DNA of 64,000 nucleotides from Candidatus Nanosyncoccus sp. (GCA_045603565.1 JAZUML010000003.1:13818-77817); one strand, 5' to 3'; counted from the first letter of the stretch, positions 3,094 to 59,963 are shown. Translations and numbers: made by a program. The notes: generated by a model from the sequence alone, not told the origin.

Positions 3094-3154
3094 GAAAAGA
3101 AAATGAGAGAGTTTACTCTCTTATTTTGTTTTTTGCGGATGGCAAAGGATAGCC

Positions 3155-3173
3155 AATCCTGCCATCCCAGCCA
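3155..3173 (+). repeat. 19-bp direct duplication of the tRNA-Gln 3' end
   Basis: AATCCTGCCATCCCAGCCA identical to 3075-3093. Confidence 0.9.
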
Positions 3174-26125: not shown

Positions 26126-27163
26126 ATGAACCTATTGAAGAAGAAAGATACGAAGAAGACCGAACAAGAGAAGGTCGAAGAACGTCGCGAAGAAATTCTC
26201 GCTACCGGTCGCAAATTTAAATACCCCCTCCAATGGACCAAGCATCGCATCGTTATTAATACCATTCTAATTACATTTGTTGTTGTAGCTATGATGGTAA
26301 TTGGTGGTTGGCTAGCTTTATATCGTTTTGGCATGACTGATGAATTCCTTTTCCGCATCACCAAGATTTTCCCAGTTCCAGTCGCCAGCGTAAACTCCGA
26401 GAATGTTCCATTTTCGGACTATCTCATGCTCTACCGTAGCAGTATTACATCTATCGAGCGCCAATCTGGCACTCAGTTTGACGAAGAATCTATCGGTACT
26501 TTGCGTGCCGAATACAAGCGCGCCGCCTTGTCAGAAGCCGAAGAATACACTTATGCCGCGAATCTAGCCAAAGAATACGGTATCACGGTATCGCAAGAAG
26601 AGGTTACAAATGAATTCAATCGTCATCTTGCTGTTGGCGGTATCGAGCGGAGCGAAGAAGGTTTCATCAAAATCATTGAAGACAATTTTGGTCTCAACAA
26701 GAGCGAATACGAGCGCATGCTCTACCTCTCTCTTTTAAAAGCCAAAGTCGAAGAAAACATTGACAATACCGCCACCAAGACCGCTCAAGAAGTAGAATCT
26801 CTTTTAGCCGAAAACGACAACAATTATCAAGCCGTAGCCGAAGCCCTCGGCGAAAAGATCCAATACCAAGAAACTGGCGGTTTAGTCGATAATAAAAACA
26901 TTGATGGTGGTCGTGCCTCTGAAGCCATGAAACTAGAACCAGGCGAAAGTAGCGGCAAATTTATCTCCATGAATGGGGACGGGTATTATTTCGTTAAGCT
27001 TATCAAGAAAACCGACAACGAAGTTAATTTCGTTTCCATCAAGGTCCCATTTACTGAATTTGGTAAAAGATTTGAATCTCTAAAAGACGAAAACAAAATC
27101 GCTGAATATATCGAAATCAAAGACCCAAATCAAACTGAAGAAACGATTGAGCAACCAGAATAG
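26126..27163 (+). CDS. SurA N-terminal-domain / PrsA-like foldase
   Basis: TM anchor, PVASVNSENV, AKEYGITVSQEEV helical SurA-N pattern. Confidence 0.65.
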   Translation: MNLLKKKDTKKTEQEKVEERREEILATGRKFKYPLQWTKHRIVINTILITFVVVAMMVIGGWLALYRFGMTDEFLFRITKIFPVPVASVNSENVPFSDYLMLYRSSITSIERQSGTQFDEESIGTLRAEYKRAALSEAEEYTYAANLAKEYGITVSQEEVTNEFNRHLAVGGIERSEEGFIKIIEDNFGLNKSEYERMLYLSLLKAKVEENIDNTATKTAQEVESLLAENDNNYQAVAEALGEKIQYQETGGLVDNKNIDGGRASEAMKLEPGESSGKFISMNGDGYYFVKLIKKTDNEVNFVSIKVPFTEFGKRFESLKDENKIAEYIEIKDPNQTEETIEQPE

Positions 27164-27273
27164 AAATAGCGCGGTGCAAAGAGATTACTCTATTTCGCTA
27201 AATTATTTTTAAGCCTATCGTCGCCCCACCAATTCGTCTCGATTATATTAAAAAAAGAAGCCTCGAGAGCTTG

Positions 27274-27291
27274 TGGTGCGAGTACAGGGAG
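27274..27291 (-). repeat. 18-bp duplication of the tRNA-Gly 3' end (1 mismatch)
   Basis: TGGTGCGAGTACAGGGAG versus TGGTGCGGGTACAGGGAG at 27358-27375. Confidence 0.85.
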
Positions 27292-27357
27292 ATTGCCCTC
27301 CCTGGGCCCCACTCCCACAAACAAAAAATAAGAGCGAGCTCTCATTTTTTTATTTGC

Positions 27358-27432
27358 TGGTGCGGGTACAGGGAGTCGGACCCTGATCTCATCCTTGGGA
27401 AGGATACATAATAGCCGCTATACGATACCCGC
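27358..27432 (-). tRNA. tRNA-Gly(CCC)
   Basis: GCGGGTA/TACCCGC acceptor, ATCC-TT CCC AA-GGAT, T-arm CAGGG-TCCGACT-CCCTG, CCA. Confidence 0.92.
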
Positions 27433-27482
27433 AGCACCTATATTATATCACACCCCTTAGAATATGGTATAATAAATTTATT

Positions 27483-29150
27483 ATGCAAGAAATTAAAAAT
27501 CAGCTTAAAAATGTTATTCAAAATCTTTACGGTCTAAATTTTGATCCCGAACTCGCTCCTTCACCGGATAACATTAACGCCGATTATTCCACCAATGCTC
27601 CCTTGAAGCTTGCCAAAGAATTGCATAAATCCCCGATGGAAATTACAAGTGAGATGGAAGCATCTATATCTGATAAAGGGGGATTCGCTTCTGCCCCAGG
27701 TTTCCTAAATTTTATTATATCAGACGATTATTTAACAGACGGCATTGATAAATTATCTCAAGATTTCAATACTGCCATTACGTCGGACAAATTCAAAGGT
27801 AAAACTGTCATTTGTGAGTTCAGCGACCCTAACCCCTTCAAGGTCCTTCACGTCGGTCATCTATATACAAGCATAGTCGGCGATTCAATCTCTAGATTGT
27901 TTGAATATGCTGGCGCCAAAGTCATACGGGCTAACTTCGGTGGCGATGTTGGGCTTCATGTAGCCAAAACCATGTACGTCCTACGTCAAAAAAATCCCGC
28001 CAAGCTCACCATCGAAGACATCGCTAAGTGCTATATCGAAGGCACCGCTCTTTACGAAGATGACGAGAACGCAAAGCAAGAAATTACCGAGCTAAACAAA
28101 GAAATTTATAAAATTAATTCCGAAGACCTTCACGATTCCGATCTAGCCAAACTATACTGGCAAGGCAGGGAATTGTCCTACCAATACTTTGATAATTTTT
28201 ATAATTCAATTGGTGTCAAATTTGATAAATACTATCCAGAATCCACCGTCGCCGAGCTTGGCCTAGCAAAAGTCAAAGAACAGCTCAAAAACGGCGTTTA
28301 CGAATTAAGTAATGGTGCCATCATCTTTAACGGCGAAAAATTCGGCCTCCATACCCGTGTTTTTATTAATCAAGAAGGTGTTCCAACTTACGAGACCAAA
28401 GATGTTGGATTGATATTCACCAAATGGCAAGATTATCATTTTGATAAATCAGTTATTATCACCGGGTCTGAGCAGTTAGACTATATGAAAGTCGTTCTAA
28501 AGTCTATTGAGCAATATGCCCCAGAATTAGTCGCAAAAACTTCACACTTAACTCACGGCCTGGTCAAACTTCCTGGTAACGTCAAAATGTCATCCCGTAA
28601 AGGTAATTTCTTAAAAGCTGTCGATGTGTTAGATCTGGTTCGCAACGAACTAAAGAGCGAATACAACTCCACCGATGAGCTTGTCTCACTTGCTGCCACC
28701 AAGTATGCCTTCTTAAAATACAAAATGGGTGGAAATATTATCTTCGACCCCAAAGAATCCGTCAAAATGACCGGCAACTCCGGGCCTTACCTGCTATACT
28801 CCTGTGTCCGCGCCAAAAAAATCTTACAAAAATCTCCAAGCGAATCCAAGAACAAAGAGAATAAACTACCTAGCAAACAAGAATCCGTCCTAGATTCGCC
28901 AGAACGCATTTTAATGAAGAAACTCCTCGAATACCGCGCTATTTTAGAAGTTGCCGTGATCGAAATGGCCCCACACAAACTAGCGAATTATTTATATGAA
29001 TTAGCTCAGGAATTCTCAAGGTTCTACGAAAACTGTCCAGTAAATGGCAGCAGTCAAGAATCAGAGCGCCTTAAGCTAGTCAAAGTATATCTAGATACTA
29101 TGACCCATGGCTTAGCTATTCTCGGCATCAAAATCCCGGAGGAAATGTAA
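27483..29150 (+). CDS. argS: Arginine--tRNA ligase
   Basis: EFSDPNPFKVLHVGH (HIGH), GDVGLH, KMSSRKG, GNSGPYLLY, DALR domain. Confidence 0.96.
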   Translation: MQEIKNQLKNVIQNLYGLNFDPELAPSPDNINADYSTNAPLKLAKELHKSPMEITSEMEASISDKGGFASAPGFLNFIISDDYLTDGIDKLSQDFNTAITSDKFKGKTVICEFSDPNPFKVLHVGHLYTSIVGDSISRLFEYAGAKVIRANFGGDVGLHVAKTMYVLRQKNPAKLTIEDIAKCYIEGTALYEDDENAKQEITELNKEIYKINSEDLHDSDLAKLYWQGRELSYQYFDNFYNSIGVKFDKYYPESTVAELGLAKVKEQLKNGVYELSNGAIIFNGEKFGLHTRVFINQEGVPTYETKDVGLIFTKWQDYHFDKSVIITGSEQLDYMKVVLKSIEQYAPELVAKTSHLTHGLVKLPGNVKMSSRKGNFLKAVDVLDLVRNELKSEYNSTDELVSLAATKYAFLKYKMGGNIIFDPKESVKMTGNSGPYLLYSCVRAKKILQKSPSESKNKENKLPSKQESVLDSPERILMKKLLEYRAILEVAVIEMAPHKLANYLYELAQEFSRFYENCPVNGSSQESERLKLVKVYLDTMTHGLAILGIKIPEEM

Positions 29151-45554: not shown

Positions 45555-45596
45555 TTGAAAATAAAATAGACCCAAAGGGTCTAATTTTATTTTCAA
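45555..45596 (+). terminator. Long hairpin after tRNA-Asp (probable terminator)
   Basis: TTGAAAATAAAATAGACCC-AAA-GGGTCTAATTTTATTTTCAA. Confidence 0.7.
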
Positions 45597-45658
45597 CAGA
45601 CGAAACCAACGAGTCGTACTTGTTTTTTTCTAATACTCGTGGTATAATACCTCCCAAT

Positions 45659-46600: not shown

Positions 46601-47372
46601 AGATACCGCCGACACCAAGACTTTGCAATCCAAGATCACTGCCATGCGCGAAGGCGGCAAAATCATGGGCAATCTTTTAAAAGACCTCGAAAACTATGTC
46701 AAGCCCGGCATGACAGGGAAGGAAATTGACGCTTGGGTCCGCCAGGAAATCGTTAAACGTGGCGCCACCGTAGCGTACGATGATTTAAAAGAGAAATTTC
46801 CAGGAGCAATCTGTATTTCCATTAATGACGAATTGGTTCACGGCGCCCCTAAGGATGAACCCCTAGAAGAGGGCGACAAAGCTTCTTTTGACCTCGTCAT
46901 CGGTTATAAAGGCTACTATACTGACTCCGCTTTTACAATGATAGTTGGCGAAAAAGGCTCACCAGCCGTTAAAAAAATGATTAATATTACCAAAGAATCT
47001 CTCTGGGCCGGCATTGAGCAAGTTAGGCCCGGCGCCCATATCGGCGATATTGGCCACGCCGTCGAAACAGTCCTAAGAAAAGGTCATCTCGGCGTAATAG
47101 AAAACTACATCGGCCACGGCATCGGCAAAGAAATGCACGAACCGCCCGAAGTCCCCAATTATGGCAAAAAAGGTCACGGCTACAAACTAGTTGAAGGCGA
47201 TACTATTTGCATCGAACCAATGTCTTGTCTTGGTAAACCCGCTAATTACGTAGACAAAGATGACAACTGGAGCGTCAAAATGAAAGACGGCTCCATCGGC
47301 TGTCACTGCGAACACACCATTCTCGTCACCAAAGACGGTTACGAAGTGCTAACACTAGCAGATGGCGAGTAA
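46590..47372 (+). CDS. map: Methionine aminopeptidase type I
   Basis: CISINDELVHG, D..YYTDSAFT, GHGIG..MHEPP, IEPM, HCEHTI. Confidence 0.96.
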   Translation: MVNKDTADTKTLQSKITAMREGGKIMGNLLKDLENYVKPGMTGKEIDAWVRQEIVKRGATVAYDDLKEKFPGAICISINDELVHGAPKDEPLEEGDKASFDLVIGYKGYYTDSAFTMIVGEKGSPAVKKMINITKESLWAGIEQVRPGAHIGDIGHAVETVLRKGHLGVIENYIGHGIGKEMHEPPEVPNYGKKGHGYKLVEGDTICIEPMSCLGKPANYVDKDDNWSVKMKDGSIGCHCEHTILVTKDGYEVLTLADGE

Positions 47373-47462
47373 GAATTCCTAAGATGTCCTGCGGGACATA
47401 AAGACTTGGCCCGAGTGACCCGGAACGTGCCCGAAGGGCACGCTTGGAATTCTTACTCGCCA
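47363..47462. repeat. Family C palindromic element overlapping the map stop codon
   Basis: Perfect 17-bp inverted repeat TGGCGAGTAAGAATTCC/GGAATTCTTACTCGCCA enclosing two small hairpins. Confidence 0.85.
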
Positions 47463-58448: not shown

Positions 58449-58533
58449 GCCCGAGTGGCGGAATTGGTATACGCGTTCGACTTAAAATCGAATGGAGAAA
58501 TCCATATGGGTTCAAGTCCCATCTCGGGCACCA
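58449..58533 (+). tRNA. tRNA-Leu(TAA)
   Basis: GCCCGAG/CTCGGGC acceptor, TTCGA-CT TAA AA-TCGAA, long variable arm, TTCAAGT, CCA. Confidence 0.96.
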
Positions 58534-58576
58534 TGCATCTGAAGATGCATGAAAAAGTAGGACGTTGTTCTGCGAA

Positions 58577-58598
58577 TCAAGTCCCATCTCGGGCACCA
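58577..58598 (+). repeat. 22-bp direct duplication of the tRNA-Leu 3' end
   Basis: TCAAGTCCCATCTCGGGCACCA identical to 58512-58533. Confidence 0.92.
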
Positions 58599-58607
58599 CT
58601 GAATTTG

Positions 58608-59963
58608 ATGAGTTATATTGCGATTGATCTTAAGTCTTTTTATGCTTCCGTAGAATGCGTGGAGCGAGGGTTGGACCCTTTGACTGCGAAATTGGTAGTG
58701 GCGGATGAGTCGCGAACTGATAAAACAATTTGTTTGGCAGTTTCGCCGGCCTTGAAAGCTCTTGGTATTCCTGGGCGCGCAAGGTTATACGAGGTGAAGC
58801 AAAAAGCAAAGGATTTTATTATCGCTCCGCCGAGAATGGCTTATTATATTAGCTATAGTACACGTATATATAATATATATCTTCGTTATATTGCCGAAGA
58901 AGACATGCATGTTTATTCGATTGACGAAGTTTTTATTGATGCAACGCCGTATTTAAAAAACTATAAAATGACAGCTAGGGAATTAGCAATAAAAATAATA
59001 AAAGAGGTTTTGGCTGAGACTGGCGTGACGGCCACAGTGGGAATTGGAACGAATTTGTATCTTGCGAAGGTGGCGATGGATATTGTGGCAAAACACGAAG
59101 AGCCGGATGAGGACGGAGTGCGTATTGCTGAGCTAGACGAGATGAGCTACCGACAAAAACTGTGGGAGCACAAGCCGTTGACGGATTTTTGGCGTGTGGG
59201 TAAAGGCTATGCGAGGAGATTAAAAAGCGCAGGGCTAAATACGATGGGCGATATTGCGCTTTGTTCGGAGCATGATGAAGACTATTTATATAAAATGTTT
59301 GGTGTAAATGCGGAACTTTTGATTGACCACGCGTGGGGATGGGAGCCGTGTGAAATAGCTGACATCCGAAAATATCGACCAAAAAGTAATTCGTTTTCGT
59401 CTGGGCAAGTTTTGAAGGAGCCGTATAGTTTTGAAAAGGCACGTACGGTGGCAAGGGAAATGGCGGAAGAGGTGGGCTTGTCGCTACTTAGGAAGGGCTT
59501 AGTAACAGAGCAGGTGGTTTTGACGGTGGGCTATGATAAGGCTAGTTTAGTTAATTATAGTGGCGAAACAAAAGCGGACTTTTATGGTAGGACAGTGCCA
59601 AAGCCTGCCCATGGTACTCATAATTTGCGCGAATATAGCGCTTCGACTGAGGAAATATCGCGAGCAGTGGCGGATTTGTTTGAAAGAATAGTTGATCCGA
59701 AGCTATTGGTGCGTAGAATCAATATTGACGTAAATCACGTCATAAGAGAAGAAGATGCGGCAAAAATTCCGAGACAACTTGATTTGTTTGTAGATTTGAA
59801 TAAGCCAAAAAATCAGAAATTAAAAAAAGAGAAACGTGCGAACGAGGCAATTATTGCGATAAAAAGACGATACGGTAAGAATGCAATTTTGAAGGGAATA
59901 AATTTTGAAGAGGGAGCGACGGGGCGAGAGCGTAATACGCAAATCGGAGGACACCGAGGATGA
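58608..59963 (+). CDS. Y-family DNA polymerase (UmuC/DinB-like)
   Basis: IAIDLKSFYASVEC, YSIDEVFID, GIGTNLYLAK, FWRVGKG, IKRRYGKNAILKG; start moved out of the tRNA to ATG 58608. Confidence 0.93.
   Translation: MSYIAIDLKSFYASVECVERGLDPLTAKLVVADESRTDKTICLAVSPALKALGIPGRARLYEVKQKAKDFIIAPPRMAYYISYSTRIYNIYLRYIAEEDMHVYSIDEVFIDATPYLKNYKMTARELAIKIIKEVLAETGVTATVGIGTNLYLAKVAMDIVAKHEEPDEDGVRIAELDEMSYRQKLWEHKPLTDFWRVGKGYARRLKSAGLNTMGDIALCSEHDEDYLYKMFGVNAELLIDHAWGWEPCEIADIRKYRPKSNSFSSGQVLKEPYSFEKARTVAREMAEEVGLSLLRKGLVTEQVVLTVGYDKASLVNYSGETKADFYGRTVPKPAHGTHNLREYSASTEEISRAVADLFERIVDPKLLVRRINIDVNHVIREEDAAKIPRQLDLFVDLNKPKNQKLKKEKRANEAIIAIKRRYGKNAILKGINFEEGATGRERNTQIGGHRG

Follow-up and report, generated by a model that had tools for sequence, protein, structure and literature searches.

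Behind the tRNA-Gly(CCC) gene of this Candidatus Nanosyncoccus sp. stand a hairpin and then a nearly perfect second copy of the end of the tRNA itself, and the question raised by this locus is what such a copy is and how it came to be there. The stretch of DNA that was analysed, hereafter the window, is 64,000 nucleotides long and belongs to a genome (G000) of 757 kb in 15 contigs which is 99% complete. A sequence-only reading had described the tRNA-Gly trailer as CCA, a hairpin, CAGGGAG, a loop and a 17/18 copy of the tRNA end, on the plan of the tRNA-Gln trailer, and had proposed from the hairpin common to both that a mobile cassette targets tRNA 3' ends. Our analysis bears out this architecture, and the Gln trailer does follow the same plan.

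The locus occupies positions 27250-27432 of the minus strand. The tRNA-Gly(CCC) gene, with its CCA encoded, was called at 27358-27432 (ARAGORN; Rfam RF00005, 52.4 bits) and its 3' end reads CTCCCTGTACCCGCACCA on that strand. After a 6-nt spacer comes hairpin 1 (27323-27351, minus strand; sequence and fold), a perfect A/T-flanked stem, AAAAAAATGAGAGC-TC-GCTCTTATTTTTT, which has the terminator-like form A7-TGAGAGC-TC-GCTCTTA-T6. It is followed by GTTT, GTGGGAGTGGGGCC, CAGGGAG, GGCAAT, CTCCCTG, TACTCGC and ACCA, ending at 27274. The conserved box GGAGTGGGGCC (27305-27315, minus) is nearly invariant in the twelve-species Gly alignment described below, and its GTGGG (27312-27308) pairs with CTCGC (27282-27278) in a 5-bp acceptor-like helix (helix 2). 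Within it the fold gives a T-arm-like hairpin (27285-27304, minus) made of CAGGGAG (27304-27298), the loop GGCAAT (27297-27292) and CTCCCTG (27291-27285). The echo proper, CTCCCTGTACTCGCACCA (27274-27291, minus), is a 17/18 copy of tRNA positions 59-76 including ACCA, and its sole difference, a C>T, preserves a G.U pair in helix 2. A second short hairpin, AAGCT-CTCGA-GGCTT, then leads into CTTTTTTT with its T7 run (27250-27272, minus) and by its sequence is likely to be the terminator of read-through transcripts.

By arithmetic, about 3e-7 matches of 17/18 or better would be expected by chance within 400 nt, and the local alignment of the Gly echo gives z = 8.6 against shuffles. For the 118-nt trailer the folding energy is -43 kcal/mol (z = -4.1), which none of 200 shuffles equalled. 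A simple terminator scanner made no call in 27100-27520, hairpin 1 going uncalled because of its 2-nt loop and few G-C pairs; a T6 run stands behind its stem and a T-run is kept in all 12 species. No Rfam family was found for the module, in the window at the gathering threshold or in 27200-27450 at E <= 10. ARAGORN and RF00005 recognised six true tRNAs only in the window and called no cloverleaf at the module, which retains only the acceptor-like and T-like helices of the tRNA fold. A 7-bp acceptor helix in the tRNA register was also considered for the module and rejected, since it is 62% paired among the species aligned and the 5-bp helix which replaced it is 98% paired.

Two sister modules are present in the window. 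That behind tRNA-Gln(TTG) (3094-3173, plus strand; sequence, fold z = -6.2) has a hairpin at 3100-3127, a minihelix from 3137 to 3173 and an exact 19-nt echo at 3155-3173, and AAAATGAGAG...CTCTTATTTT is common to its hairpin and to hairpin 1 of Gly. The other, beyond the cases listed in the sequence-only reading, follows tRNA-Leu(TAA) (58449-58533). It is a module of the F1 family (58534-58598, plus; sequence), with a small hairpin, AAAAAG, a stem with the loop GTTCTGCGAAT and an exact 22-nt echo at 58577-58598. Nine nucleotides past this echo lies the ATG of an ORF encoding a Y-family DNA polymerase (Pfam IMS and IMS_C; 58577-59960 region), and the gap leaves no room for a promoter, so that transcription of the polymerase gene probably starts at the tRNA promoter and passes through the module.

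Two other places in the window deserve mention. The tRNA-Asp trailer (45555-45630) has a long A/T-flanked terminator hairpin and then ACGAAACCAACGAGTC, which to the eye resembles part of tRNA-Asp, its T-stem and acceptor 3' strand, copied in antisense; there is no direct echo, and the resemblance was not significant in our scan. At 47363-47462 there is a palindromic element with 33-nt arms, 82% complementary, whose sequence includes the final codons and the stop of the gene upstream; host sequence is thereby duplicated in inverted form, which recalls the tRNA-specific stems of the echo modules.

If hairpin 1 were a generic terminator, it should occur widely and without regard to tRNAs. The core A[AT][AG]AGAG..CTCT[TC]AT was found three times in 757 kb, directly behind tRNA-Gln(TTG), tRNA-Gly(CCC) and tRNA-Arg(TCG), all of them echo-bearing, so that the hairpin noticed in two trailers is shared and homologous and has a third copy. 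With the 96-nt Gly module as query, homologues were obtained in 35 of 150 congeners, and at all retrieved loci where the hairpin pattern was re-found it lies 3-17 nt behind a tRNA (Gly CCC, Gly TCC, Arg TCG and Thr GGT), with a single exception 77 nt behind and past an earlier echo. This restriction to tRNA trailers argues against a generic terminator. The alternative that we are dealing with chance similarity, or with an ordinary intrinsic terminator that happens to stand behind two tRNAs, can draw on the A-tract, stem and T-tract of hairpin 1, which are like those of a bidirectional terminator, and on its occurrence without an echo too; with the distribution given above and with echo statistics that exclude chance, and for the echo already refute the explanation, it has practically nothing left to recommend it.

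The hairpin and the echo are separable, for in the congeners G071 and G043 the hairpin stands behind tRNA-Gly without echo or minihelix and with a promoter-like TATAAT directly after it. The suggestion that the hairpin is itself the mobile part therefore failed, and judging by these sequences hairpin 1 is most simply a terminator family of the tRNA's own.

The other element, the echo, proved to be a genome-wide feature. Each of the 48 tRNAs was compared with its own flanks, the upstream flank serving as control. An exact copy of 19-29 nt of the tRNA's own T-loop-to-CCA segment was found 41-114 nt downstream of 12 of the 48, and Gly CCC and Lys CTT reach 17/18 downstream; the best match in the upstream control never exceeded 15/18. 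By gapped alignment and shuffles, and with a match to an adjacent tRNA-Pro excluded, 15 tRNAs have z > 8 and three more are borderline, so about one third of the tRNA genes carry echo modules. The start of the echo falls inside the T-arm or slightly ahead of it, at tRNA position 58 (19 nt, the extent of the Gln, Arg and Glu echoes), 56 (21 nt), 55 (22 nt) or, where the T-arm is copied whole, 48 (29 nt); in Gly CCC it is 59, and CCA is always the exact end. Elsewhere in the genome no distant copies of the tRNA 3'-terminal 15-mers were found, and a statistical scan of the trailers for the tRNA end in antisense, hampered by arms of insufficient length, was significant in 2 of 48.

Tandem arrangements occur as well. 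Behind tRNA-Gln(CTG) (G000:C4:13366-13519) there are two identical 65-nt F1 units and 24 nt of a third; at the corresponding place in a close Nanosyncoccus relative (locus L123) the first unit is a different one. In addition, decayed echoes were observed at Leu GAG and Lys CTT of this genome and in the congeners G116 and G148, which indicates that not all echoes are under selection.

The modules fall into several families. F1 has a small hairpin, AAAAAG and a stem with the loop GTTCTTCGAAT and lies behind Asn, Leu TAA, Gln CTG and the decayed Leu GAG; F2 (Gly TCC, Ser CGA) is a terminator followed by a stem with the loop GACCTTCGGTG; and F3 (Gln TTG, Gly CCC, Arg TCG, Arg GCG) is the A/T-flanked hairpin followed by a minihelix. 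F4, found behind Trp and in relatives behind Thr and His, consists of TTGGGAAC and a copy of the whole T-arm, while in F5 (Glu CTC) a GC-rich core of 36 nt interrupts the T-arm copy between positions 57 and 58. Behind Lys CTT, Glu TTC and Val CAC there is a longer type. All families share a last hairpin whose 3' arm repeats the T-loop/T-stem segment of the tRNA itself and whose 5' arm is complementary to that segment; the 5' arm consequently varies from tRNA to tRNA.

We also observed a 20-nt motif, GCGTCCCAAG(G/T)GGCAAACGG, in the tRNA-Pro(CGG) module and just past the tRNA-Thr(CGT) echo (G000:C3:96758 and C15:13827). One congener (L271) has the same motif in a tRNA-His module, and in another (L279) a partial one, CGTCCCAAGGGG, lies behind the tRNA-Ser(CGA) echo.

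Outside the window, at G000:C3:86695-86810 (minus strand), a full-length tandem pseudo-tRNA-Glu(TTC) stands directly upstream of the live gene. It is truncated at the 3' end, and between positions 57 and 58 its T-loop contains the 36-nt GC-rich F5 core, which along 51 nt is 98% identical to the Glu(CTC) module of contig C13. Such a gene would be expected if the modules were neutral relics of tandem tRNA-gene duplication which have lost the D and anticodon arms and whose 3' end is kept by gene conversion only. The Trp echo, which spans the whole T-arm and has the terminator repeated too, the F5 modules, which copy the tRNA from the variable region on, and the decayed echoes speak in the same sense. 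This explanation does not predict one foreign loop behind 22 tRNAs, the very uniform size (spacers of 41-65 nt) and orientation of the modules, or the compensatory changes in hairpin 1 and in the left arm of the module that are described below, and we consider it quite improbable.

The foreign loop is that of F1. A scan of prokaryote genomes, one for each species, with the pattern TCGTTCTTCGAATCGA-N15-CCA gave 93 matches, against about 4 expected by chance (arithmetic). Eighty-four of them come from records titled Candidatus Saccharibacteria or Nanosyncoccus, mostly MAGs from the ruminant gut, with two titled 'bacterium', and nine are clearly outside the group, including four orthologous Tsukamurella sites. 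All 84 Saccharibacteria matches lie in a tRNA trailer. Among the 77 with a called tRNA the 22-nt echo is identical to the upstream tRNA in 65 and has at most two mismatches in 71, and the matches span 22 anticodons. The four variable stem positions are paired in 78% of cases, compared with 65% for shuffled partners (at most 73% in 1000 shuffles), and here A.C exceeds G.U by 13 to 4, which tells against the explanation favoured below. The proximal parts of the F1 modules differ widely among loci. A phage attP origin of F1 was tried and rejected: the 42 viral-contig matches to the F1 16-mer are about what chance gives (an estimate), and none adjoins a tRNA.

Conserved loops such as TTCTTCGAAT behind 22 tRNAs are hard to obtain by local duplication alone and look like the spread of an element. 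The modules could thus be selfish miniature insertion elements, comparable to MITEs or RPEs, which enter the T-loop or 3' end of a tRNA, leave the tRNA intact by duplicating their target, are mobilised in trans and have a structure that serves mobility. In keeping with this, the F1 core is shared by so many trailers, F2 and F3 also lie behind several tRNAs each, modules are present or absent at syntenic loci, two families stand in tandem at Glu CTC of the congener G001, the F5 core sits inside the T-loop of the pseudo-tRNA-Glu(TTC), and other palindromic families with site-specific stems exist in the genome. By the yardstick of MITEs the cores and loops recur and the loci are polymorphic, yet the modules differ over their full length and each stem is specific to its tRNA. 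In each case the left arm of the hairpin, the stem partner of the echo, fits the local tRNA; target duplication cannot supply such an arm, and a simple copy-paste cassette would not change it in this way. Moreover, no copies lie away from tRNA trailers, the viral-contig F1 copies never adjoin a tRNA, the proximal parts of F1 vary by locus, the modules of Arg TCG, Arg GCG and Gly last over several species with compensatory change, and neither a Y1 transposase (Y1_Tnp), nor a reverse transcriptase (RVT_1), nor a dedicated integrase was found in this 99%-complete genome, in a search that covered Y1 transposases, reverse transcriptases and tyrosine recombinases. We regard insertion elements as an unlikely explanation, if one to be taken seriously.

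Part of the mobile cassette proposal holds nevertheless. Polymorphism of loci, swaps of family at the same tRNA and the occurrence of F1 behind 22 tRNA species are what one would expect if something spreads to the 3' ends of tRNAs; a mobilising enzyme is the part for which we found no candidate among the enzymes covered.

The structural evidence comes mainly from the Gly module. One module from each of twelve species entered an alignment of 88 columns; five of the modules follow Gly CCC and seven follow Gly TCC. In a three-helix model, which leaves ACCA free and consists of hairpin 1, a T-like helix of 7 bp and the acceptor-like helix of 5 bp, GTGGG/CCCGC, 96% of cells are paired, and both-sided changes occur in 12 of the 24 pairs, a number that none of 500 shuffles reaches; slid controls are at most 63% paired. 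Compensatory changes affect 6 of 12 pairs of hairpin 1 (97% of cells paired) and 5 of 7 pairs of the T-like helix (93%), while the acceptor-like helix has one compensatory pair, an A-U/G-U/G-C switch. The T-like helix follows the T-stem of each species' tRNA (CAGGGAG/CTCCCTG, GAGGGAG/CTCCCTC, GAGAGAA/TTCTCTC, and so on). Since G.U outnumbers A.C by 21 to 4 in this alignment, folding of the sense strand, that is, of RNA, appears to be favoured.

Compensatory conservation over 12 species points to a structural constraint rather than to pure selfish mobility. Part of the covariation in the T-stem could be inherited from the tRNA by conversion and not independently selected. In the closest module, that of G112, the 5' strand has a complementary A and the echo a C; this could mean that the pair was A-U in an ancestor and that the local tRNA later converted the echo of G112. 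The hairpin subtypes are not sorted by isoacceptor, which indicates that modules moved between the two Gly loci.

Turnover among relatives is rapid. Five other Saccharibacteria genomes with 31-37 tRNAs each were sampled, three of the same genus (G001, G004, G007) and two of other families of the order (G027, G039). Echoes were found behind 7/31 tRNAs in G001, 5/35 in G004, 4/33 in G007, 6/37 in G027 and at least 5/32 in G039, compared with 15/48 in the genome of the window, and the tRNAs that carry them are not the same set from genome to genome. At Gln TTG the family is F3 in G000, F2 in G001 and, in another species, F1; at Glu CTC it is F5 in G000, F2 in G004, and in G001 F5 with F1 after it. 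Tandem modules were also found at Gly GCC of G007 and at several F1 loci. At the syntenic tRNA-Gly(CCC) locus, flanked by argS on one side and a SurA-like gene on the other, the module is absent in at least 8 congeners and present in G112, G117, G131 and G125. These comparisons are made at species level, where intergenic DNA is too diverged for insertion boundaries to be aligned. The modules of Arg TCG, Arg GCG and Gly persist over several species.

At two loci, L265 and L266 (in G115 and G102), the argS-side flank is like that of the Gly(CCC) locus of G000, and the gene found there is of the tRNA-Gly(TCC) type with a Gly module. From the sequence, tRNA gene and module may have been replaced together.

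Echo and tRNA do not always agree. In G017 the T-arm of the live tRNA-Gly differs and the echo retains the T-arm typical of the genus, so that echoes can be older or foreign alleles; the Gly echo of G000 is identical (18/18) to the 3' end of the live tRNA-Gly(CCC) of G049. Both facts would suit attL/attR scars, left where an integrase (Campbell) integration into the T-loop supplied a new 3' end, displaced the old one and later lost its genes, as would the extent of the echo from T-loop to CCA, which resembles the T-loop-class att identity blocks reportedly described by Williams in 2002. Against scars stand the mere 41-114 nt between the repeats in 15 of 15 cases, the lack of distant third copies and of viral attP-like copies, and the single tyrosine recombinase of the genome, which is Xer-like and located about 4.3 kb away. 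The search for a gene islet bounded by an echo likewise ended in rejection, as the 1.5 kb of extra DNA behind the tRNA-Gly of G004 has no echo at its far end. We therefore hold integration scars to be very improbable.

Older or foreign echo alleles are also a prediction of recombination at the 3' third of the tRNA. Saccharibacteria are naturally competent and integrate incoming DNA by homologous recombination (PMC10633639), from which we infer that natural competence would offer a route of exchange, anchored on conserved tRNA sequence, that needs no recombinase of the element's own.

On the RNA side, the F1 modules of Asn and Gln(CTG) have a T-run terminator only after the echo, and some modules (Leu TAA, Asn, Gln CTG) are, by inference from their layout, co-transcribed with their tRNA. 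The Gly minihelix may be transcribed rarely, as hairpin 1 has the form of an intrinsic terminator. A type-A RNase P RNA is present in the genome. CCA is encoded in all 48 tRNA genes, as in all sampled tRNA genes of the genus, and a CCA-adding enzyme of the PolyA_pol family was not found in G000 or in 39 of 40 relatives of the order, in a search that was positive for 10 of 10 bacterial controls. As such an enzyme was recognised in almost none of the genomes searched, damaged CCA ends of tRNAs are presumably beyond repair in this clade; we found no literature on the loss of this enzyme in Saccharibacteria or CPR. A link between this loss and the echoes was considered and dropped, because G039 has the enzyme together with its echoes and no correlation is visible (n = 1).

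Taking these data together, the explanation that we favour, with about even confidence, is that these are structurally constrained trailer modules similar to the RtT repeats of E. coli, born by recombination, transcribed with the tRNA and processed as a minihelix. Each resembles the upper half of the adjacent tRNA in reduced form, with a T-arm-like hairpin and, in the family of the Gly module, a short acceptor-like helix, and it usually stands after a terminator-like hairpin. At the DNA level, modules would be born and reshuffled by recombination or partial duplication at the 3' third of the tRNA; the 19-29 nt of identity would permit unequal crossing-over, giving tandem arrays, loss and exchange between loci and species, and gene conversion would in places keep the echo in step with its tRNA. 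Template switching within quasi-palindromes is a possible shortcut by which loops could reach new tRNAs with a matching left arm. At the RNA level, one transcript would contain tRNA and module, reading through hairpin 1 at those loci that have it, and the module would fold into a minihelix with a free ACCA tail. RNase P might then act at its 5' side and trimming to CCA at its 3' side, as for E. coli rtT RNA, and selection would act on the fold and not on the loop sequence, leaving compensatory changes.

A bolder idea, which we consider improbable, is that the modules encode mini-tRNAs of a new class, transcribed onward from the tRNA promoter, cut by RNase P and trimmed to CCA, whose acceptor/T-arm minihelices would serve as decoys or regulators of proteins which bind tRNA 3' ends, with E. 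coli rtT RNA as a lone member of the class. In Saccharibacteria these proteins would be 3' exonucleases, synthetases, EF-Tu or tRNA-targeting toxins. Apart from any such role, annotation can confuse echoes with att sites, tRNA pseudogenes or terminators, and much of the local recombination in reduced genomes may be driven by the modules. Culture and transformation of Saccharibacteria are now possible (PMC10633639), which makes the question tractable by deletion and RNA mapping.

The literature searched gave us no account of modules like these for Saccharibacteria or CPR, and those of Saccharibacteria appear to be undescribed there. Several known systems can be compared with them. In the displaced tRNA 3' fragments (attR) of tRNA-integrated islands and prophages, of which examples have been reviewed (PMC9897764), there is likewise a direct repeat from T-loop to tRNA end, and an older or foreign allele in the echo, as in at least one relative here (G017); the Saccharibacteria modules have a structured spacer of 41-114 nt between the repeats in place of a kb-scale element or integrase. 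Rickettsia RPE, REP/BIME and MITEs are also short, gene-less, hairpin-forming, patchy and of many families, and the 36-nt core within tRNA T-loops in G000 recalls them. The echo modules differ in standing strictly at tRNA 3' ends, in their tRNA-derived stems and in that no transposase partner was found. In the rrn operons of E. coli, sRNA genes lie between dual terminators and are made by read-through (PMC8144298). The Gly locus, with hairpin 1, minihelix and a second T-run hairpin, is by analogy alike in layout only, since rrn sRNAs are not copies of the 3' end of the upstream gene.

The closest comparison is with the RtT repeats of E. coli tyrT and tyrV (RF00391). In E. coli K-12 tyrV three 178-bp units follow, each ending in the exact 19 nt AATCCTTCCCCCACCACCA of tRNA-Tyr, with rttR and tpr annotated there. 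These repeats have been known since about 1980 and, to our knowledge, no function or origin has been accepted for them; rtT RNA is handled by the enzymes that process tRNA ends. In both systems the unit lies directly behind the tRNA gene on the same strand, it ends with the last 19 nt of the tRNA from T-loop position 58 (here in the Gln, Arg and Glu echoes), and tandem arrays with a partial last unit occur, as at Gln(CTG). The units described here are 62-133 nt long instead of 178 bp, mostly single and of several unrelated sequence families, they have no tpr-like ORF, and they lie behind about a third of the tRNAs where RtT lies behind one operon. RF00391 gave no match in the window at the gathering threshold or in 27200-27450 at E <= 10, so that the modules are RtT-like in design and outside the RF00391 family. 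In this genome, then, the RtT design is present genome-wide, in several independent families, with compensatory evolution and rapid turnover among congeners, and this makes it tractable by comparative genomics.
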